Below, in pieces: positions 1 through 6,700 of a stretch of 6,700 nt of DNA. Made by a program: the position numbers and the translations under genes. The notes beneath the pieces were generated by a model. It worked only from the letters and a program-made list of their open reading frames with translations, searched no databases and was not told where the DNA came from. This DNA comes from a virus. How positions within the stretch are numbered: the first letter of the stretch is position 1; each line of letters opens with the position of its first letter. Where the stretch lies: IMG/VR virus record IMGVR_UViG_3300045988_151348; one strand, given 5' to 3'.

Positions 1-95
1 GCTCGTTGAGGAGGGCGTCCGTCAAAATCCTGCCTTTGTGCAAAACGGAGAAAATGTTGCAAAAACGGGTCAAATAGGCGATATCGTATCCCCAT
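1..95. repeat. Left arm of a ~95-bp inverted repeat that closes the window (partner 6605-6700)
   Basis: The reverse complement of 6646-6700 equals 1-55 exactly. Positions 56-95 keep matching 6605-6645 with 3 substitutions (56, 71, 89) and one 1-bp indel. Similarity stops at CCCCAT (90-95) / ATGGGG (6605-6610). The arm contains direct TGYKGCAAAA-type motifs at 37-48 and 55-69, with a third at 105-121 just inside the arm. Confidence 0.95.
81..95 (-). other. Inverted, unoccupied third copy of the prophage att core
   Basis: The minus strand reads ATGGGGATACGATAT, 14/15 identical to the direct repeat at 1633-1647 and 6605-6619. It is followed outward by CGCCTATTTGACCCG, the same flank that follows attR (TCGCCTATTTAACCCG). 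Confidence 0.6.
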
Positions 96-258
96 TCGCG
101 GATTTGTGTTGCAAAATCAGGTGTTTTCGGGTGTTTCTCGATCCACTTACCGTGGCATGCCGTTCCCGTAACTGAACCGGGAACTCACCTTGGCCCACCA
201 TCAATTGCACGCTCATATTACACCCGGCTTTCCCGCCCGTCAACCGCTTTGGCCGATT

Positions 259-732: not shown

Positions 733-830
733 GCCGCCGTCAGGCGGCAAATGTGGCGCCGCTGTCAAGCGGCAAATGTGGCGCCGCTGTCAAGCGGCAA
801 ATGTCGCACCGCCCTCAGGCGGCAGATCTC
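733..830. repeat. Four tandem ~25-bp units, each with a short GC stem-loop, abutting the hsp20 stop codon
   Basis: The units start at 733, 758, 783 and 808. Units 2 and 3 (GCCGCTGTCAAGCGGCAAATGTGGC / ...GTCGC) differ at one base. Each unit holds GCCGC-N6-GCGGC or a variant. The last unit overlaps the TGA of hsp20 (829-831 on +). They may act as a 3' stabiliser or terminator for the minus-strand transcript. Confidence 0.85.
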
Positions 831-1269
831 ACTCGATCGCCAGTCTCCGGCTGCCGGAAACCTCGACATCCTTCTTCGGCAGCGTCAGGCTCAGCACGCC
901 GTCGTTGTAGCTGGCCTTGATGCCCTCGGCCTTGACGCCGGAGATATCGAAGCTCCTCGCGTAGCTGCCGTAGCTGCGCTCGCAGCGGACGTAGCTCTTG
1001 TCCTTCTCCTCGTGCTCGTTCTTGCGCTCGGCCTTGATGGTCAGGTTGTCGCCGTCGATGTCGATGGCGATGTCCTCCTTCTTCATGCCGGGCAGATCGG
1101 CCTCGAGCAGGTAATGGTCGCCCTTGTCCTGAATGTCGGTCTTGAACGTGCCGACGTCGCCGAGGAAGTCGCGGTTGCCGAAGAACGCGCGCTCCAGCGC
1201 CTCCATGTCGCGGAACGGGTCATAGGTGGTCATGTGGTTATTGTTGCGGTAAGGTCTCAGTTCAAACAT
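829..1269 (-). CDS. hsp20: Small heat-shock protein, Hsp20/alpha-crystallin family (146 aa)
   Basis: The translation has the alpha-crystallin core typical of clostridial Hsp18-type proteins (FKTDIQDKGDHYLLEADLPGMKKEDIAIDIDGDNLTIKAERK...RSFDISGV...IKASYNDGVLSLTLPKK). A GGAGG Shine-Dalgarno (complement of 1278-1282) lies 8 nt before the ATG at 1269-1267. Codon usage is GC-rich. Confidence 0.93.
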   Translation of the reverse strand: MFELRPYRNNNHMTTYDPFRDMEALERAFFGNRDFLGDVGTFKTDIQDKGDHYLLEADLPGMKKEDIAIDIDGDNLTIKAERKNEHEEKDKSYVRCERSYGSYARSFDISGVKAEGIKASYNDGVLSLTLPKKDVEVSGSRRLAIE

Positions 1270-1397
1270 AATGAATACCTCCGAAAATTCGAGATTTGGA
1301 AAGCCTCGGGAGCTTGCCTTCCTTTGCTTTTCTTGACTCAGAGTCTACCCCGGAATTGTGTCCAAAGATACGCATTTGTGTGAACGGACTATGAATT

Positions 1398-1424
1398 TTA
1401 GCACTCTCGCTCTAAGAGTGCTAA
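1398..1424. promoter_or_regulatory. CIRCE element (HrcA operator)
   Basis: TTAGCACTC-TCGCTCTAA-GAGTGCTAA is a perfect match to the consensus TTAGCACTC-N9-GAGTGCTAA. It lies 128 bp upstream of the hsp20 start codon and 208 bp from the prophage attL core. Confidence 0.9.
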
Positions 1425-1474
1425 AAGCGTCGGATTTTGTTGCATTTGACGGGCAGCCTGCCCCAAAACCGTCC

Positions 1475-1496
1475 ATGTCTACCCGATGTCTACCCG
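1475..1496 (+). repeat. Perfect tandem 11-bp repeat ATGTCTACCCG x2 (GTCTACCC iterons 2 and 3 of 5)
   Basis: GTCTACCC occurs at 1477-1484 and 1488-1495. The same 8-mer in the same orientation also occurs at 1343-1350, 1546-1553 and 1558-1565. Confidence 0.8.
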
Positions 1497-1543
1497 CCGA
1501 AACGCCTGGGGCGCAAGGGTTTGCGGGTTTTCCGAGAGGGTCG

Positions 1544-1567
1544 CCGTCTACCCTTCCGTCTACCCAA
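1544..1567 (+). repeat. Tandem 12-bp repeat CCGTCTACCCTT / CCGTCTACCCAA (GTCTACCC iterons 4 and 5)
   Basis: The repeat is directly visible. It lies 66-89 bp left of the attL core. A short hairpin, CGCAA-GGGT-TTGCG (1512-1525), sits between the two iteron pairs. Confidence 0.8.
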
Positions 1568-1630
1568 TTTTTCGCGCCGATTCCCGAAGCGCCTGCTATT
1601 TCTGCGAAAATTTTTGAAATTTCTGAAAAT

Positions 1631-1655
1631 GTATGGGGGTACGATATCCCCATAC
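1631..1655. other. attL junction: perfect 25-bp palindrome containing the 15-bp att core (1633-1647)
   Basis: GTATGGGG-GTACGATAT-CCCCATAC has 8-bp arms and a 9-nt spacer. The GC-rich to AT-richer composition change occurs here. The core ATGGGGGTACGATAT is repeated exactly at 6605-6619. Confidence 0.75.
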
Positions 1656-1670
1656 GAAGAAGGTGATTTC

Positions 1671-2684
1671 TTGCCATGCTATCATCCGCTTAAAGCCTTT
1701 GTTTTAGGTGAAAAAGACGGTAAACGGTTGCTCAAGGTGACGTGCTATGAGGTAGACCATCTCGAGCGTGCTGGTGAAGGTTTTGCGTGTTGCACACATC
1801 CCGCTTATGGCCGTCTCGGTGATGTTACGGAGTTCATCGAAATTCCCTGCGGAAAGTGTTCCGGCTGTCGGCTTCAGAGATCGCGTGAGTGGGCTAATCG
1901 TTGTATGCTCGAGCTTGAATACCACAAGTCGAGTTACTTCGTCACTCTGACTTATGATGATGCTCATGTTCCGATTCATTATTATTCCGATCCGGAGACC
2001 GGTGAGGCCCTGCCGAGTATGTCTCTTGTGAAGCGAGATTTTCAACTTTTTATGAAGCGTCTCCGGAAGAAATTCGGTGAAGGTATTCGATTTTTTGCAT
2101 CTGGAGAGTATGGTTCTCTGACGTTTCGCCCTCACTATCATGCAATCATTTTTGGATTGGAGCTTGATGATCTTGTTCCCTATAAGCGATCTGCGCAAGG
2201 TTTTCAATATTTTAATTCTGTGTCACTGCAGGACGTCTGGCCGAATGGCTTTGCTGTTGTTGCTCCGGTGACTTGGGAGACCTGTGCTTATACTGCCCGT
2301 TATGTCATGAAGAAGCTTACCGGCCCTGAAGCTGAGTTCTACGAGAATTTTAATATTCTTCCTGAGTTTTCGCTTATGTCGCGGAAGCCCGGTATTGCCC
2401 GAAAGTATTACGAGGATCATCCCGACATATATGAACATGAGTTCATCAACATTTCGACTGAGAAAGGAGGTAGGAAGTTTCGACCTCCGAAGTATTATGA
2501 TAAATTGTTTGATCTCGATTGTCCGGAAGAATCTGCCAAGCTTAAAGCTGTTCGTCAGAAGATGGCAGCTGAAGCTCAGAAAGCAAAATTACAAAAAACC
2601 ACACTTAGTTATTTAGACCAGCTTGCCGTTGAAGAACGGAATCAGCTGGCCCGAATAAAATCATTGAAAAGGAGTTGTATCTAA
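1671..2684 (+). CDS. VP4: Replication initiation protein VP4 (HUH rolling-circle endonuclease)
   Basis: Motifs: N-terminal LPCYHPLKAF; Cys cluster CGKCSGCRLQRSREWANRC; motif 1 YFVTLTYDD; HUH motif HYHAIIF (HYH at 2133-2141); catalytic YTARYVMKK (Tyr codons at 2289 and 2301). I place the start at TTG 1671, preceded by GAAGGTGA (1657-1664). ATG 1629, on the host side of the junction, is an in-frame alternative. The 1437 start in the ORF track runs into GC-rich host DNA and is unlikely. Confidence 0.9.
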   Translation: MPCYHPLKAFVLGEKDGKRLLKVTCYEVDHLERAGEGFACCTHPAYGRLGDVTEFIEIPCGKCSGCRLQRSREWANRCMLELEYHKSSYFVTLTYDDAHVPIHYYSDPETGEALPSMSLVKRDFQLFMKRLRKKFGEGIRFFASGEYGSLTFRPHYHAIIFGLELDDLVPYKRSAQGFQYFNSVSLQDVWPNGFAVVAPVTWETCAYTARYVMKKLTGPEAEFYENFNILPEFSLMSRKPGIARKYYEDHPDIYEHEFINISTEKGGRKFRPPKYYDKLFDLDCPEESAKLKAVRQKMAAEAQKAKLQKTTLSYLDQLAVEERNQLARIKSLKRSCI

Positions 2685-2797
2685 TGCGTAAACCTATGCG
2701 TCCCAAGAAAGACAAGAAGGTCTTTCGCCGTACTGCTGCGAAGTCCAAGAAGATTAACATTAACCCGACTGTTTTCCGTGGAGGTATCCGGCTTTGA
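2684..2797 (+). CDS. Small basic DNA-binding/packaging peptide (phiX174 J / gokushovirus VP8-like), 37 aa
   Basis: MRKPMRPKKDKKVFRRTAAKSKKININPTVFRGGIRL is strongly Lys/Arg-rich. An AAGGAG Shine-Dalgarno lies at 2669-2674. The ATG overlaps the VP4 stop (TAATG, 2682-2686). It is below the size cutoff of the ORF track. Confidence 0.8.
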   Translation: MRKPMRPKKDKKVFRRTAAKSKKININPTVFRGGIRL

Positions 2798-2958
2798 AGT
2801 TTGAATTGACTGTTGGTGTTTATGACGGTGATGATCTTGTTGATACTGTTTGTTATGTTGTTCCCGCTGAGCCTTTGGCTCGTATTTTTGCTCAGATTCC
2901 TGAGGATTCCGTTGTTGTTTCGGTAAGTATTGAAGGTGTAAAGGAGTTGTACGAATGA
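2794..2958 (+). CDS. Hypothetical small acidic protein, 54 aa (TTG start)
   Basis: MKFELTVGVYDGDDLVDTVCYVVPAEPLARIFAQIPEDSVVVSVSIEGVKELYE. GGAGGT (2780-2785) lies 8 nt upstream. The TTG overlaps the preceding stop (TTGA) and its own stop overlaps the next ATG (ATGA, 2955-2958). Without this ORF, a compact genome would have 157 nt of non-coding DNA here. I do not recognise a family. Confidence 0.5.
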   Translation: MKFELTVGVYDGDDLVDTVCYVVPAEPLARIFAQIPEDSVVVSVSIEGVKELYE

Positions 2959-3206
2959 AATACGGTGTTTATTCTATCCGCGATGCCCGTACGGGCTTTC
3001 TTCCGCCTACGGTTGATCAGAACGATTCTTCCGCGATGCGGAATTTCGCTCATGCCTGTATGCAGAAGGAAAGCCTTCTGTTTTCCCACATTGAGGATTA
3101 TGCCCTTTGTAAGATCGGCGAGTTTGACAATGAGACTGGCACGATTTTGACGCAGCTCCCCGTGGTTATTTTGGATGGTACGTCCATCCAGAGAAAGGAT
3201 GTTTGA
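2955..3206 (+). CDS. Conserved small microvirus non-structural protein (possibly VP5-like), 83 aa
   Basis: An AAGGAG Shine-Dalgarno (2941-2946) lies 8 nt before the ATG. The N-terminus MKYGVYSIRDARTGFLPPTVDQNDSSAMRNFAHAC resembles, from memory, a small protein common in gokushovirus genomes between VP4 and VP3. The functional assignment is tentative. Confidence 0.7.
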   Translation: MKYGVYSIRDARTGFLPPTVDQNDSSAMRNFAHACMQKESLLFSHIEDYALCKIGEFDNETGTILTQLPVVILDGTSIQRKDV

Positions 3207-3208
3207 TT

Positions 3209-3709
3209 ATGTATGATGAAAAGCTTAGATTCGCTACTCAGTATCGTCCGAGAACTCGTTTCCCTTCAAATCTTGGTGAGCGCGAAAGGATTCTCTATCA
3301 GCCTAAGTTTGATGAAAATGGAGTTATGGATCTCGTTGAGTCTGGCCGAGAAGACCTTTACGATTTCATTCAATCGCACGCAGAGTCTGTTGACATCCAC
3401 GTGATTCTTGCTCGATATCAGAATGGCGACATTGACGCGCTTTCGCGTGTCCAGGGCGCTTATGGTGATTTTTCCAATATGCCCACGTCTTATGCTGAAC
3501 TCTTGAACAGGGTTAATGAAGGTCAGAGTTTTTTCAATTCTCTTCCGGTTGATATTCGCGCGAAGTTCAATCATAATTTCGCGGAGTTTATGGCTGGTAT
3601 GGACAAGCCTGATTTCCTTGACAAGCTCGGAATCAAGCCCGAGCGAGAGTCTGACCCGTCCCAGGAGGAAAAACCGGCTGTTGAGCCGAAAAAGGAGGTT
3701 ACGGAATGA
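3209..3709 (+). CDS. VP3: Internal scaffolding protein VP3
   Basis: Its position immediately upstream of VP1 and its sequence character fit VP3 (DLYDFIQSHAESVDIHVILARYQNGD...GDFSNMPTSYAELLNRVNEGQSFFNSLPVDIRAKFNHNFAEF, acidic/Lys-rich tail). ATG 3209 lies 9 nt after AAAGGA. TTG 3203, which overlaps the previous stop as TTGA, is an alternative start. The stop overlaps the VP1 ATG (ATGA, 3706-3709). Confidence 0.85.
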   Translation: MYDEKLRFATQYRPRTRFPSNLGERERILYQPKFDENGVMDLVESGREDLYDFIQSHAESVDIHVILARYQNGDIDALSRVQGAYGDFSNMPTSYAELLNRVNEGQSFFNSLPVDIRAKFNHNFAEFMAGMDKPDFLDKLGIKPERESDPSQEEKPAVEPKKEVTE

Positions 3710-5403
3710 ACCGCAATGTTGAATCCCATTTCGCGCTTAATCCCACGAATATCGATATCCGGCGTTCGACGTTTGATCGCTCGCATTCTCTTAAGACTTC
3801 GTTTAACGTTGGTGACATTGTACCTTTTTTCGTTGACGAAGTATTACCGGGAGATACGTTCAACGTGGACACATCCAAAGTTGTGCGTTTGCAGACGTTG
3901 CTTACTCCGGTCATGGATAACATCTATCTTGACACATATTTCTTCTTCGTACCGAACCGGCTTACTTGGAGTCATTGGAAGCAGTTCAACGGTGAGAATA
4001 CGGAATCTGCTTGGATTCCTCAGACCGAGTATGAAATACCTCAAATTACTGCTCCTGCTGATAGCGGATGGTCTGTTGGAACTATTGCCGATTATCTCGG
4101 TGTGCCTACCGGCGTTCCTAATCTTTCCGTTAGTGCTCTTCCCTTCCGAGCTTATGCCTTGGTAATGAATGAGTGGTTTCGTGATGAAAACCTATCTGAC
4201 CCGCTCGTTGTTCCCGTCGATGATGCTACTGTAGCCGGTGTGAATACCGGTACGTTTGTGACCGATGTTGCGAAAGGCGGTCTTCCTTATAAGGCCGCTA
4301 AGTATCACGACTATTTTACAAGCTGTCTTCCGTCTCCCCAGAAAGGCCCGGATGTTTTGATTCCCTCGGCCACGTCCGGCGAGTATCCTGTCGTTACCCG
4401 TGAACAGCCTCATGATCCCGGTGGATTTGTTTTAACTGGTCTTTCTAATATTTCTTTTGCTTCTGGAGATCGACCGGTTAATATCTATGATTCTCTTGCT
4501 TTCAAGCCTGTTTCTGCTGGTTCTAATTATGCTGGCATTACTGGTTTAAGTGGTGGTGCTGATAAGCCCGGTTTTGATCCTGTTAACCTTTATGCTGTTG
4601 CTTCCGGTGGTCTTGGTGCTTCCATTAATCAGCTTCGCATGGCGTTTCAGATTCAGAAGCTCTATGAGAAAGACGCCCGTGGTGGTTCCCGATATATCGA
4701 GATTCTTAAGTCTCATTTCGGTGTGACTTCTCCCGATGCCCGTCTTCAGCGTCCCGAATATCTCGGTGGTAACCGTGTCCCCATCAATATTAATCAGGTT
4801 GTCCAGCAGTCGGCTACGGCCTCCGGCGAGACTGCACAGGGTACTGTCACCGGTATGTCTGTCACTACGGATACGCATTCCGATTTTACCAAATCTTTTA
4901 CTGAGCATGGCTTTGTCATTGGCGTTATGGTTGCTCGTTACGATCATACTTATCAGCAGGGCCTTGAACGTTTCTGGTCTCGTAAGGATCGCTTTGACTA
5001 TTATTGGCCTGTTTTTGCTAACATCGGTGAGCAGGCTGTGAAGAACAAGGAGATTTTTGCTCAAGGTCCGTCTGTTAAGGATTCTGCTGGTGCTGTCATC
5101 GATGATCAGGTTTTCGGTTATCAGGAAGCGTGGGCCGATTACCGCTACAAGCCGTCCCGCGTCACTGGCGAAATGCGTTCTCAGTACGCGCAGTCCCTTG
5201 ATGTTTGGCATTTGGCTGATGACTATTCTGCTTTGCCTATGCTTTCGGATTCGTGGATTCGTGAGGATAAGACAAATGTGGATCGTGTGCTTGCAGTCAC
5301 ATCTTCTGTTAGCAATCAGTTGTTTGCCGATATCTACATCAAGAACCGGACTACCCGTCCGATGCCGATGTACTCTATCCCCGGTCTGATCGACCATCAT
5401 TGA
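3706..5403 (+). CDS. VP1: Major capsid protein VP1 (Microviridae F-protein family), 565 aa
   Basis: Hallmark N-terminus HFALNPTNIDIRRSTFDRSHSLKTSFNVGDIVPFFVDEVLPGDTF. Also FFFVPNRL, ALPFRAYALVMNEWFRD, INQLRMAFQIQKLYEKDARGGSRYIEILKSHFGV..D.RLQRPEYLGG. A long Gly/Ser-rich insertion (roughly 4380-4620) matches the surface-loop insertion typical of gokushoviruses. An AAGGAGGT Shine-Dalgarno lies at 3692-3699. Confidence 0.97.
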   Translation: MNRNVESHFALNPTNIDIRRSTFDRSHSLKTSFNVGDIVPFFVDEVLPGDTFNVDTSKVVRLQTLLTPVMDNIYLDTYFFFVPNRLTWSHWKQFNGENTESAWIPQTEYEIPQITAPADSGWSVGTIADYLGVPTGVPNLSVSALPFRAYALVMNEWFRDENLSDPLVVPVDDATVAGVNTGTFVTDVAKGGLPYKAAKYHDYFTSCLPSPQKGPDVLIPSATSGEYPVVTREQPHDPGGFVLTGLSNISFASGDRPVNIYDSLAFKPVSAGSNYAGITGLSGGADKPGFDPVNLYAVASGGLGASINQLRMAFQIQKLYEKDARGGSRYIEILKSHFGVTSPDARLQRPEYLGGNRVPININQVVQQSATASGETAQGTVTGMSVTTDTHSDFTKSFTEHGFVIGVMVARYDHTYQQGLERFWSRKDRFDYYWPVFANIGEQAVKNKEIFAQGPSVKDSAGAVIDDQVFGYQEAWADYRYKPSRVTGEMRSQYAQSLDVWHLADDYSALPMLSDSWIREDKTNVDRVLAVTSSVSNQLFADIYIKNRTTRPMPMYSIPGLIDHH

Positions 5404-5414
5404 GAGGTGATCTA

Positions 5415-6239
5415 ATGACTACTGGTAAGGATGCTGCTCAGATTCAGAGCGTTCCTGCTGTTGGTAATTTGGATTCTGCTCTTTCCCGTATTACGAGGAC
5501 TGCTTCAGAAAACACCGCTAAAAGCGCTCAGATGGCTTCTGAGCAACGCGATTGGCAGGAAAGGCAAAATGCCTTGGCTATGCAATTTAACGCTCAGGAG
5601 GCTGCTAAAAGCCGTTCTTGGCAGGAATACATGAGCAATACTGCGCACCAGCGTGAAATTCGTGATCTTAAGGCAGCCGGTTTGAATCCGGTTTTAAGTG
5701 CTATGGGAGGTAACGGCGCTGCCGTTACCTCCGGCGCTACCGCTTCCGGCGTTACCTCTGCCGGAGCTAAAGGCGAGGTTGATACCTCTGCTAATGCTGC
5801 TTTGGTTCAGGTTCTCGGTTCTATTCTTTCTGCACAGACTCAGCTTCAGACCGCTAACGTTAATGCTCGGACGCAAGAGGCCGTTGCCGATAAGTATACC
5901 GCGATGGAAAAACTTGTTGCTCAGATTGGCGCCGATGCTTCTAAATATGGTGCTGAGCTTGGTTATGCTGGCTCTAAGTATAATGCCAATATGCATTATG
6001 CTCTTGGTAAGTATCAGACTGATAAAGGATTTGAGAATCAGGTTTTTCTTGAGCAGAATTATCCTTCTAACTATGTTCAAGCTGTTAATTCTATTCTCAA
6101 GGCTCTTGGTCTTGATGTTACAGGAGGTTCTACCTCCGGTGAAGGTTCTGTTTCTGCTGAACAGTATGCTAAACTTATGGAAAAGTATAATGCTGCTCTT
6201 CTTGGTTCAGGTCCTAAACGTTCTAAGCATCAGAGATAA
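5415..6239 (+). CDS. VP2: Minor capsid / DNA pilot protein VP2
   Basis: It has the conserved VP2 core WQEYMSNTAHQREIRDLKAAGLNPVLS, followed by a Gly/Ala/Ser-rich region. GAGGTG (5404-5409) lies 5 nt before ATG 5415. TTG 5400, which overlaps the VP1 stop as TTGA, is an alternative start. Confidence 0.9.
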   Translation: MTTGKDAAQIQSVPAVGNLDSALSRITRTASENTAKSAQMASEQRDWQERQNALAMQFNAQEAAKSRSWQEYMSNTAHQREIRDLKAAGLNPVLSAMGGNGAAVTSGATASGVTSAGAKGEVDTSANAALVQVLGSILSAQTQLQTANVNARTQEAVADKYTAMEKLVAQIGADASKYGAELGYAGSKYNANMHYALGKYQTDKGFENQVFLEQNYPSNYVQAVNSILKALGLDVTGGSTSGEGSVSAEQYAKLMEKYNAALLGSGPKRSKHQR

Positions 6240-6241
6240 AG

Positions 6242-6283
6242 AAAACAGAAAACTCCGGAGCTGTGCTTCGGAGTTTCTGTTTT
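6242..6283 (+). terminator. Intrinsic-terminator-like hairpin after VP2
   Basis: AAAACAGAAAACTCCGGAGC-TGT-GCTTCGGAGTTTCTGTTTT forms a ~20-bp stem with one bulged A and one G-T pair. It ends in TTTT and starts 3 nt after the VP2 stop codon. Confidence 0.75.
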
Positions 6284-6321
6284 GTAACCAAGCGTGAGCG
6301 CGGTTAGCGAATAGATATGCA

Positions 6322-6341
6322 CCAGCGAGCGCCAGCGAGCG
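6322..6341 (+). repeat. Perfect 10-bp tandem repeat CCAGCGAGCG x2 in a GC-rich patch of the phage intergenic region
   Basis: The repeat is directly visible. A related AGCGTGAGCG occurs at 6291-6300. The patch (about 6291-6345) is clearly more GC-rich than the rest of the phage. Confidence 0.7.
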
Positions 6342-6345
6342 GACA

Positions 6346-6378
6346 CAGCCCCATTACTCTCTTGATGTAATGGGGCTG
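6346..6378. other. 12-bp-stem hairpin in the phage intergenic region (candidate origin or protein-binding structure)
   Basis: CAGCCCCATTAC-TCTCTTGAT-GTAATGGGGCTG has a perfect stem and a 9-nt loop. The arms (CCCCATTAC / GTAATGGGG) are near-copies of the att palindrome arms (CCCCATAC / GTATGGGG). Confidence 0.8.
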
Positions 6379-6416
6379 AGTGACACCACGATATGCAAAA
6401 TGCTCTCTTTAGTTTA

Positions 6417-6444
6417 TTGACAAGCTATGAATATATGATATATT
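6417..6444 (+). promoter_or_regulatory. Near-consensus sigma70/sigmaA-type promoter with extended -10
   Basis: -35 TTGACA (6417-6422), 16-bp spacer, TG (6436-6437), -10 TATATT (6439-6444). It lies about 30 nt upstream of the ATG at 6475, which is preceded by AAGGTG (6464-6469). Confidence 0.7.
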
Positions 6445-6474
6445 AATGAATATAATAAACTGTAAGGTGATTAA

Positions 6475-6582
6475 ATGAAAAATGATGATAAAGATAAAAT
6501 GCTTGATGATTTTTGTTTACAGATGCTTTTGCTTGTTGGAGCTGGTGTTGCTCTAGTTGTTATTATTTGTTCTTTTCTTTGA
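6475..6582 (+). CDS. 35-aa peptide with a charged N-terminus and one predicted transmembrane helix
   Basis: MKNDDKDKMLDDFCLQMLLLVGAGVALVVIICSFL. There is a good Shine-Dalgarno 5 nt upstream and a strong promoter directly upstream. The hydrophobic stretch of about 20 residues is long enough to span a membrane. It is below the ORF-track cutoff. Confidence 0.6.
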   Translation: MKNDDKDKMLDDFCLQMLLLVGAGVALVVIICSFL

Positions 6583-6604
6583 TTTGTCCTCCTGAATTTC
6601 TGTG

Positions 6605-6619
6605 ATGGGGGTACGATAT
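6605..6619 (+). other. attR core, exact copy of 1633-1647
   Basis: ATGGGGGTACGATAT. Weaker similarity continues to the left (TGAATTTCTG at 6593-6602 versus TGAAATTTCTG at 1615-1625). To the right the sequence becomes the inverted-repeat arm shared with 1-80. Confidence 0.75.
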
Positions 6620-6700
6620 TCGCCTATTTAACCCGTTTTTGCAATATTTTCTCCGTTTTGCACAAAGGCAGGATTTTGACGGACGCCCTCCTCAACGAGC
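6605..6700. repeat. Right arm of the window-closing inverted repeat (partner 1-95)
   Basis: See the left arm. The outer 55 bp are identical and the inner ~40 bp are slightly diverged. Confidence 0.95.

Follow-up and report, generated by a model that had tools for sequence, protein, structure and literature searches.

A gokushovirus-like prophage with its best promoter candidate and its lytic operon on opposite sides of the attachment site, at a putative surface-layer gene switch

The 6,700-nt stretch of DNA analysed here (the window; IMG/VR record IMGVR_UViG_3300045988_151348) is nearly the whole of a human-gut metagenome contig (L011, 6,844 nt) and carries an intact 4,972-nt gokushovirus-like prophage at bases 1648–6619. 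The attachment site (att) of this phage lies between its best promoter candidate and VP4, the gene of its rolling-circle replication initiator (Rep). In the circular double-stranded form, one strong sigma-A-type promoter (6417–6444), just past the VP2 terminator and an origin-like hairpin, would transcribe a small peptide gene, cross att, run from VP4 to VP2 and end at the terminator after almost a full turn. A host-encoded conservative site-specific recombinase would exchange strands within TACGATATC, the partner being a host sequence that we call the P arm, followed by the same core. Since this exchange point falls between promoter and VP4, integration would cut Rep and the structural genes from their only promoter and put them behind host DNA with none on the same strand. 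Topology, with no need of a repressor, would then keep the prophage quiet. Excision would re-join promoter and operon, so that induction would be excision itself.

We consider topology-based silencing of the integrated lytic operon, relieved by excision, to be the best explanation of the observations, and hold it with slightly better than even confidence. Silencing by separation is structurally well founded, and from the sequence we infer that the operon would indeed be silent in a lysogen, with the promoter active and the peptide still expressed. Temperate microviruses have only five to eight genes, none of them recognisable as encoding a repressor or an integrase. For their quiescence, the layout of promoter, att and operon, conserved in dozens of free and integrated genomes, offers a concrete answer in which topology is the switch.

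Promoter, attachment site and operon in the two forms

The prophage is bounded by a 15-nt direct repeat, ATGGGGGTACGATAT, at 1633–1647 and 6605–6619, the copies lying 4,972 nt apart; outside it, the window consists of host DNA (about 60% G+C). A preliminary description, made from the window alone, had named 6417–6444 as the only near-consensus promoter and had called for a promoter scan of the whole element. That scan ranks the site (TTGACA-16-TATATT with a TG extended -10) as the best sigma-70-type match of the window on either strand, at 11/12, where 0.04 matches per window with at most one mismatch are expected by chance at this spacing. This promoter module recurs in 23 relatives, none of which departs from it in the -35 hexamer, the TG or -10 positions 1, 2 and 6; the spacer is off by one base in two of them, and only -10 positions 3–5 vary regularly. 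Relatives with different modules have a promoter-like site of their own at the same place. The -10 region is also spanned by a direct repeat of ATGAATATA (6428–6436 and 6447–6455), with a second, perfect TATAAT at 6451–6456; this could be an operator-like element or just AT-rich sequence.

Only one other plus-strand candidate reaches 10/12, a site at 3549 inside VP3 (TTGATA-17-CATAAT) that the preliminary description did not list. In relatives it drifts freely at synonymous sites, losing the -35 and, in most of them, the final T. The TTGACA hexamers near 3390, 3617 and 3930 had been read as lacking a usable -10, correctly so. VP4–VP2 appears, on this sequence comparison, to contain no conserved internal promoter. 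Upstream of the operon, the plus strand has no sigma-70-like site scoring at least 8/12 in 1270–1700 or at least 9/12 in 1–1700, and no terminator-like site lies on that strand between 1322 and 2868, so that the left end has no insulating terminator.

The first gene behind the promoter, which had been described as a 35-aa transmembrane open reading frame (ORF), encodes a peptide with a clear transmembrane segment (19-residue hydrophobic window, Kyte–Doolittle 2.84). Over codons 1–27, 19 distinct relatives show 49 synonymous against 11 non-synonymous changes; this excess reflects purifying selection, and we therefore regard the ORF as a real gene. Four unrelated small hydrophobic peptides (types A–D, 34–41 aa) occupy the slot across relatives, and since att-less relatives also have it filled, its function is not specific to lysogeny. 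The slot is a hot spot of gene replacement, with other peptide types in L001, L017 and L059. Neither the 35-aa peptide nor three alternative peptides matched a family in PHROGs or Pfam, and we regard the slot peptides as candidate lysis or exclusion peptides. If the peptide is an exclusion factor, its continued expression in the lysogen would make sense; were it a lysis protein, either its constitutive expression from one copy would have to stay sub-lethal or the promoter would have to be under control. A weak stem inside this ORF is the sole terminator-like feature between promoter and VP4 in the circle.

When the prophage ends are joined (6180–6619 followed by 1648–1760), the rebuilt junction aligns unbroken, at 84–88% identity, with circular microvirus genomes in GenBank that come from the faeces of chimpanzees and pigs. 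The same att palindrome stands just upstream of VP4 in one more circular GenBank genome (vaginal secretion) and in many IMG/VR and metagenome contigs, several of them with terminal overlaps. About 25 distinct free circular relatives share the order terminator, origin-like hairpin, promoter, small membrane-peptide gene, att palindrome and VP4. These relatives bear out the circular order deduced earlier from the window (promoter, transmembrane ORF, att, VP4 to VP2, terminator), including the position of attP between the transmembrane ORF and VP4, which recurs in every att-bearing circular relative. In four att-less relatives (L015, L016, L018 and L019), only about 17 nt separate the stop codon of the peptide gene from the VP4 start. 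This leaves no room for a separate VP4 promoter there, and att is therefore a cassette of about 45 nt inserted in the spacer. Free forms reach high coverage in one sample set (ERZ1024469), with a longer-than-unit-length concatemer (L067, 7,621 nt, about 1000x) and a second contig of 5,015 nt (L071, about 1400x), which indicates active replication or virions. We did not find the same genotype both free and integrated, the best pairs being 90–94% identical.

After de-duplication, we compared 18 left prophage–host junctions (attL), 17 right junctions (attR), 25 phage sites (attP) and 17 empty P-linked host sites. Every distinct attL consists of the host P arm, the core, CCCCAT and VP4, and every distinct attR of the end of the peptide ORF, the core and a host arm. 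The proposal that promoter and transmembrane ORF read outward into host DNA in the prophage agrees with 17/17 attR junctions, and that of VP4–VP2 lying behind promoterless host sequence with 18/18 attL junctions. Position 7 of the core is G in 14/17 empty P sites and 16/18 attL, and A in 24/25 attP and 16/17 attR. Position 7 travels with the left arm and the bases from position 17 on with the right arm, which places the strand exchange within TACGATATC. In its usual form, attP is a 9-3-9 palindrome of 21 bp, ATGGGGATA-CGA-TATCCCCAT, with a folding energy as single-stranded DNA of -10.3 kcal/mol (z = -4.8). To judge from its layout, attP is the core of a conservative site-specific recombination reaction.

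Searches of PHROGs and Pfam matched none of the eight phage ORFs to recombinase, integrase or repressor families. With no recombinase of its own, the phage must depend on a host enzyme. We rejected dif as the attachment site: nothing in the window comes within 3 mismatches of the dif consensus, and the core is not unique, with 3–4 copies within 20 kb in single host contigs, upstream of surface-layer protein genes and elsewhere. The motif pair ATGGGG/CCCCAT is common to the stem of the origin-like hairpin (GCCCCATTAC / GTAATGGGGC) and the att palindrome (ATGGGGATA / TATCCCCAT), which may be chance or a common protein-binding motif. Integration by the phage Rep, an HUH nuclease, was considered for this sharing and set aside, because the junctions are conservative and reciprocal with exchange inside a 9-bp identical spacer, and because the same core shuffles host arms in phage-free genomes.

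The host site and its surface-layer genes

The preliminary description had treated the flanks as anonymous host DNA. They are not; the phage sits in a specialised host recombination core upstream of genes for proteins with S-layer homology (SLH) domains. On longer host contigs with an identical Hsp20, the hsp20 gene of the window lies on a 1.5-kb segment between two divergent SLH genes, with about 195 nt from core to ATG. In their architecture the encoded proteins (920–1074 aa) are like S-layer proteins, combining a signal peptide with SLH domains at the N-terminus. The 5' regions of both genes form inverted repeats of about 945 nt (8696–9637 and 11175–12120 in L002), each ending at the core, and the 95-nt inverted ends of the window (1–95 and 6605–6700) form their innermost parts. 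The core follows a Q arm (the reverse complement of the window from position 96 onward) on one side and the P arm on the other.

Additional copies of the P arm with its core precede more SLH genes as well as a short unrelated ORF (the Y arm), and further P-arm copies with 92–96% identity occur elsewhere in the same host contigs. The Y arm holds a 51-aa Cys/Ser/Thr-rich ORF (MKYVVKMDYCTMAFTSGTCSLQALSNC...) 45 nt from the core, adjoins purB and purA in Oscillibacter sp. MSJ-31, and is also found in L005 (20277–20441), L007 (1–496) and L061 (around 2138). A 21-nt pattern of P arm and core also picks out this arrangement in Oscillibacter sp. MSJ-31, which makes an Oscillibacter, or a near relative within the Oscillospiraceae, the most likely host. 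Contig L060 (SFPF01000122.1), assigned to a Bacteroidales metagenome-assembled genome, carries an Oscillibacter-type P–Y junction and is probably mis-binned.

Between strains, the hsp20 segment occurs in both orientations. When L002 is compared with L007, neither of which carries the phage, the two flanks are turned round with respect to the segment and the alignments stop exactly at the two cores; SLH alleles trade P-linked and Q-linked positions between strains. The bacterial attachment site (attB) looks like the crossover core of an SLH gene inversion switch around hsp20. Gene tables of ten host contigs list no tyrosine recombinase within 10 kb either side of hsp20, only large serine recombinases amid other mobile-element genes. 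Around the P–Y site of Oscillibacter sp. MSJ-31 the ORFs are housekeeping genes (OAD beta, purB, purA), with no recombinase among them.

The Q-end promoter-like site is the only sigma-70-type site that leads out of the hsp20 segment to an SLH gene; both its hexamers are invariant in 16 Q arms and its spacer is variable. Two minus-strand promoter-like sites lie directly upstream of hsp20; one of them, the hsp20 promoter, overlaps what we take to be a CIRCE operator of the HrcA/CIRCE system (TTAGCACTC-N9-GAGTGCTAA, 1398–1424). We found no SLH promoter scoring at least 9/12 in the P or X arm (X being the right-hand host arm of the window), with a single 8/12 match at the junction in L002 only, and no terminator in the X arm in the SLH direction. 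In Lactobacillus acidophilus, the slpA/slpB inversion is a model of expressed versus silent S-layer genes (PMC3666127). By the same logic, the Q-linked SLH gene would be expressed and the P-linked ones would be silent cassettes.

The P arm contains four of the five plus-strand copies of GTCTACCC (1343, 1477, 1488, 1546 and 1558; 5 observed versus 0.09 expected), arranged as two pairs spaced 11–12 nt from start to start. They may be accessory recombinase sites or regulator boxes. A motif, GA(A)ATTTCTG, is common to the P arm and the left arm of the phage. Downstream of hsp20, a 19+19-nt palindrome (689–727) is followed by four 25-nt tandem units (728–852), each a GC-rich hairpin (GCCGCNGTCARGCGGC).

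The prophage always occupies P-linked cores and never Q-linked ones. No junction of a Q arm with phage DNA turned up among all contigs, in IMG/VR or in a scan made for this purpose over 241 million metagenome records, and empty Q-linked and P-linked sites are equally frequent at the same loci. One prophage (L085) sits at a P–Y site, which shows that the P arm, not the right arm, matters for integration. Because of the SLH context of the site, reading outward into host DNA takes on another meaning, as the phage promoter points at a surface-protein cassette, which is itself probably silent. With a strong constitutive promoter about 420 nt upstream of the cassette and no terminator between, a phage that has captured an S-layer-switch core and uses it at P copies only could both cut off its own lytic operon and drive a normally silent S-layer cassette, an extension that we find possible but doubtful. 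If it is true, lysogens would show a different surface layer, and if the S-layer is the receptor they would have superinfection immunity.

Alternative explanations

The SLH context also raises a rival, with the P arm as a regulated host control region. On this account the P arm acts as a promoter or leader that departs from the consensus, with the GTCTACCC repeats as activator boxes, and ordinarily serves any gene that recombination brings beside it. Integration would swap promoters: VP4–VP2 would come under the host P arm, in response to some host signal, and the SLH gene under the promoter of the phage. In favour of this, the phage inserts only at P-linked sites, with X or (in L085) Y as the right arm, and at no Q-linked one. 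The P arm is also well conserved over its 170 nt, has a repeat that is far from random, and precedes a short gene whose Shine-Dalgarno sequence is just 45 nt from the core (Y arm). Yet neither the P arm nor its junction has a sigma-70-like match of at least 8/12, whereas host promoters elsewhere are canonical (hsp20, the Q arm and a perfect TTGACA-17-TATAAT beside Y). We judge both the host control of the operon and the accompanying swap of promoters distinctly unlikely.

The separation of promoter and operon might also be incidental, with att simply in a tolerant spacer and the prophage in a leaky, short-lived carrier state set by recombinase equilibrium and fed by weak internal promoters or read-through. 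The genome has one non-coding region, most of it strongly conserved (terminator, a block at 6277–6342, origin hairpin and promoter), free forms reach about 1000–1400x coverage in some samples, and the lysogeny of recombinase-less gokushoviruses has been described as transient, with continuous excision (PMC7062461). Such an accident is harder to reconcile with the apparent location of att beside the start of rep in three lineages whose att sites are unrelated (PMC7062461, PMC3091885 and this window). In addition, the internal promoter candidates are not conserved, and prophages with intact genes occur on many independent contigs from different samples. We regard an incidental split as unlikely. 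A chimeric assembly is extremely improbable, and we rejected it. The window and its parent contig do end in a 95-nt inverted repeat, but the arms differ by a few bases and match the upstream regions of two divergent SLH genes on ten long host contigs, and the same attL and attR recur across dozens of contigs of independent origin, one of them 247 kb long and from an NCBI assembly (L001).

Several observations weigh against topological silencing as we propose it. The P arm carries a weak extended -10-like sequence, TGcGAAAAT (1603–1611), together with its four GTCTACCC repeats, which could be activator boxes and allow regulated host transcription into VP4; the -10-like sequence is not strictly kept, other P copies having GAAAGT or GAAATT. 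Weak internal sites (3549 and 4994) could give basal expression in this phage. The att may have been placed simply at one of the few spots that tolerate a 45-nt insertion. Finally, a promoter fully active in the lysogen would make the peptide constitutive, a problem if it is a lysis protein.

Gene content and comparison with known systems

The features of the window are listed in Table 1. From VP4 to VP2, neighbouring genes overlap or are at most 11 nt apart. VP4 starts with a TTG codon 4 nt 3' of a Shine-Dalgarno sequence (AAGGTGA, 1660–1666), and relatives keep this sequence before VP4, with TTG or GTG at the start position. The junction of P arm and core creates an ATG at 1629 in frame with VP4, from which gene callers lengthen Rep to 351 aa across attL (L011); relatives point to the start at 1671, and this ATG is an annotation trap in prophage copies. 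The 54-aa ORF has no family match and occurs in only about 4 of 48 relatives, which marks it as an accessory insertion. Family matches cover the small-gene block at 2684–3206 (phrog_10695, phrog_1670) and the VP3-VP1-VP2 block at 3209–6239 (phrog_1642, phrog_514, phrog_5158, pilot-protein families, PF09675 and PF02305). The terminator that closes the operon is kept in relatives, with paired stem changes in the alignment. The origin-like hairpin is conserved in all relatives (-14.2 kcal/mol as single-stranded DNA, z = -6.3); by analogy with phiX174, whose nick site its loop presumably resembles, it would be the replication origin. An Rfam scan of the whole window (E up to 1) gave two sub-threshold chance matches and none at att, the promoter or the P arm.

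Table 1. Features of the window and their coordinates
Feature	Position	Strand	Remarks
Host X' arm, 5' untranslated region toward SLH gene A	1–80	-	Inverted copy of 6620–6700, 98% complementary
Unoccupied Q-linked core copy ATGGGGATACGATAT	81–95	-	Never seen joined to phage DNA
Q-end promoter-like site, TTGACG-17-TAATAT	215–243	-	Sigma-70-type; reads via the Q-linked core into the SLH gene
Host hsp20 gene	829–1269	-	PF00011 HSP20, E = 3e-23; exact protein on many host contigs
hsp20 promoter, TTAGCA-18-TAAAAT with TG	1395–1424	-	Reads away from the prophage
Host P arm, 170-nt repeated left arm	1464–1632	+	At every phage-used site; four GTCTACCC repeats, AT-rich tail
attL, host-type core (G at position 7) and phage right half-site CCCCAT	1633–1653	+	
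VP4, rolling-circle replication initiator (Rep)	1671–2684	+	phrog_942, E = 1.6e-131; PF23343
37-aa basic protein	2684–2797	+	Overlaps neighbours
54-aa ORF, accessory	2794–2958	+	Between the 37-aa basic protein and VP5; overlaps neighbours
VP5	2955–3206	+	Overlaps neighbour
VP3 scaffold	3209–3709	+	
VP1 capsid	3706–5403	+	phrog_514, E = 8e-230; PF02305 (Phage_F type)
VP2 pilot protein	5415–6239	+	
Intrinsic terminator closing the operon	6250–6286	+	12-bp stem, then T run; top terminator match (6250–6276 in the scan)
Origin-like hairpin, CTTGAT in loop	6343–6381	+	Inverted repeat; stem GCCCCATTAC / GTAATGGGGC
Predicted promoter, TTGACA-16-TATATT, extended -10 (TG-n-TATATT)	6417–6444	+	Sigma-70-type scan, 11/12
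35-aa membrane-peptide gene	6475–6582	+	First after the promoter; Shine-Dalgarno AAGGTGA at 6464–6470
attR core	6605–6619	+	Phage DNA before, host X arm after
Host X arm, 5' untranslated region of SLH gene B	6620–6700	+	ATG about 195 nt from core, beyond the window

The gene order (VP4, 37-aa protein, VP5, VP3, VP1, VP2) is that of gokushoviruses, with no external scaffold or spike gene, and the closest records are Microviridae or Gokushovirinae sp. at 84–90% identity. By VP1 type and gene order, the element fits the Gokushovirinae-like Microviridae (Family 3 sensu PMC9239249) and is predicted to be a temperate gokushovirus-like microvirus. In 2020, no gokushovirus prophages were known outside Enterobacteria (PMC7062461), and in 2022 the Firmicutes cases reported came only from Erysipelatoclostridium and Mammaliicoccus (PMC9239249); the present element documents a well-delimited microvirus prophage in an Oscillospiraceae host.

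The closest functional parallel is Tn916, for which this logic has been established by experiment. As PMC11658703 relates (after Celli and Trieu-Cuot 1998), the transfer operon is silent in the integrated element, physically separated from Porf7; the main promoter reads outward at one end, the promoterless operon lies at the other, and both are joined only in the excised circle. The prophage matches this arrangement at the level of sequence. Tn916, as that source describes it, differs in having its own integrase and excisionase, an insulating left-end terminator (T1) and an antiterminator RNA (canT), whereas we see no recombinase, left-end terminator or antiterminator in this 5-kb single-stranded DNA virus, in which the outcome would be lysogeny versus virus production.

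With the E. coli enterogokushovirus and the Bacteroidetes proviruses that use XerCD/dif (PMC7062461, PMC3091885), the phage shares the lack of an integrase, the borrowing of a host recombinase, an att beside the 5' end of rep, and passive integration and excision. It differs from them in its 21-bp 9-3-9 palindrome without similarity to dif, in a site that is multi-copy within 20 kb at an SLH switch and not at the terminus, and in its Clostridia-class Oscillibacter host. Set against the features of integrative mobile elements exploiting Xer (IMEX), it likewise has no recombinase of its own, but lacks a dif-like att (28 bp, with a XerC arm, a 6-bp spacer and the XerD arm TTATGTHAA) and a single target at the terminus. 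Enterobacterial gokushovirus prophages are described as having VP4 first in their gene order and, in occasional cases, the phage dif within the N-terminal part of VP4 (PMC7062461), and a partial Bacteroidetes provirus is described as missing the 5' part of Rep and the upstream region that includes att (PMC3091885). Neither paper mentions promoters or repression. That att adjoins the start of rep in those lineages as well suggests convergent placement; that three unrelated att occupy the same genomic position argues that it was selected rather than accidental, and for this reason the layout may be general.

The host locus resembles slpA/slpB of L. acidophilus, where opposed surface-layer genes likewise flank a segment with one outward promoter and both orientations are natural (PMC3666127). 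Here the segment carries hsp20, the exchange takes place at a 15-nt core that is also present at extra cassettes, and a virus uses that core as attB. S-layer genes are also switched by chromosomal inversion in the sap system of Campylobacter fetus. A recombinase-less phage at a non-dif host site tied to surface-layer variation links lysogeny to a likely receptor locus. In the sib retroregulation of phage lambda, att lies between int and a 3' RNA-processing site, and integration separates the two, the CI repressor still being needed. In both phages integration would alter expression by splitting a gene from a cis-acting element, but here the promoter would be parted from the whole lytic programme. 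Excision-coupled expression (Tn916) and the borrowing of host recombinases (Xer-exploiting elements) are already known; new are the combination of both in a microvirus, a non-dif att that is the core of an apparent surface-layer switch, and a Clostridia-class host.

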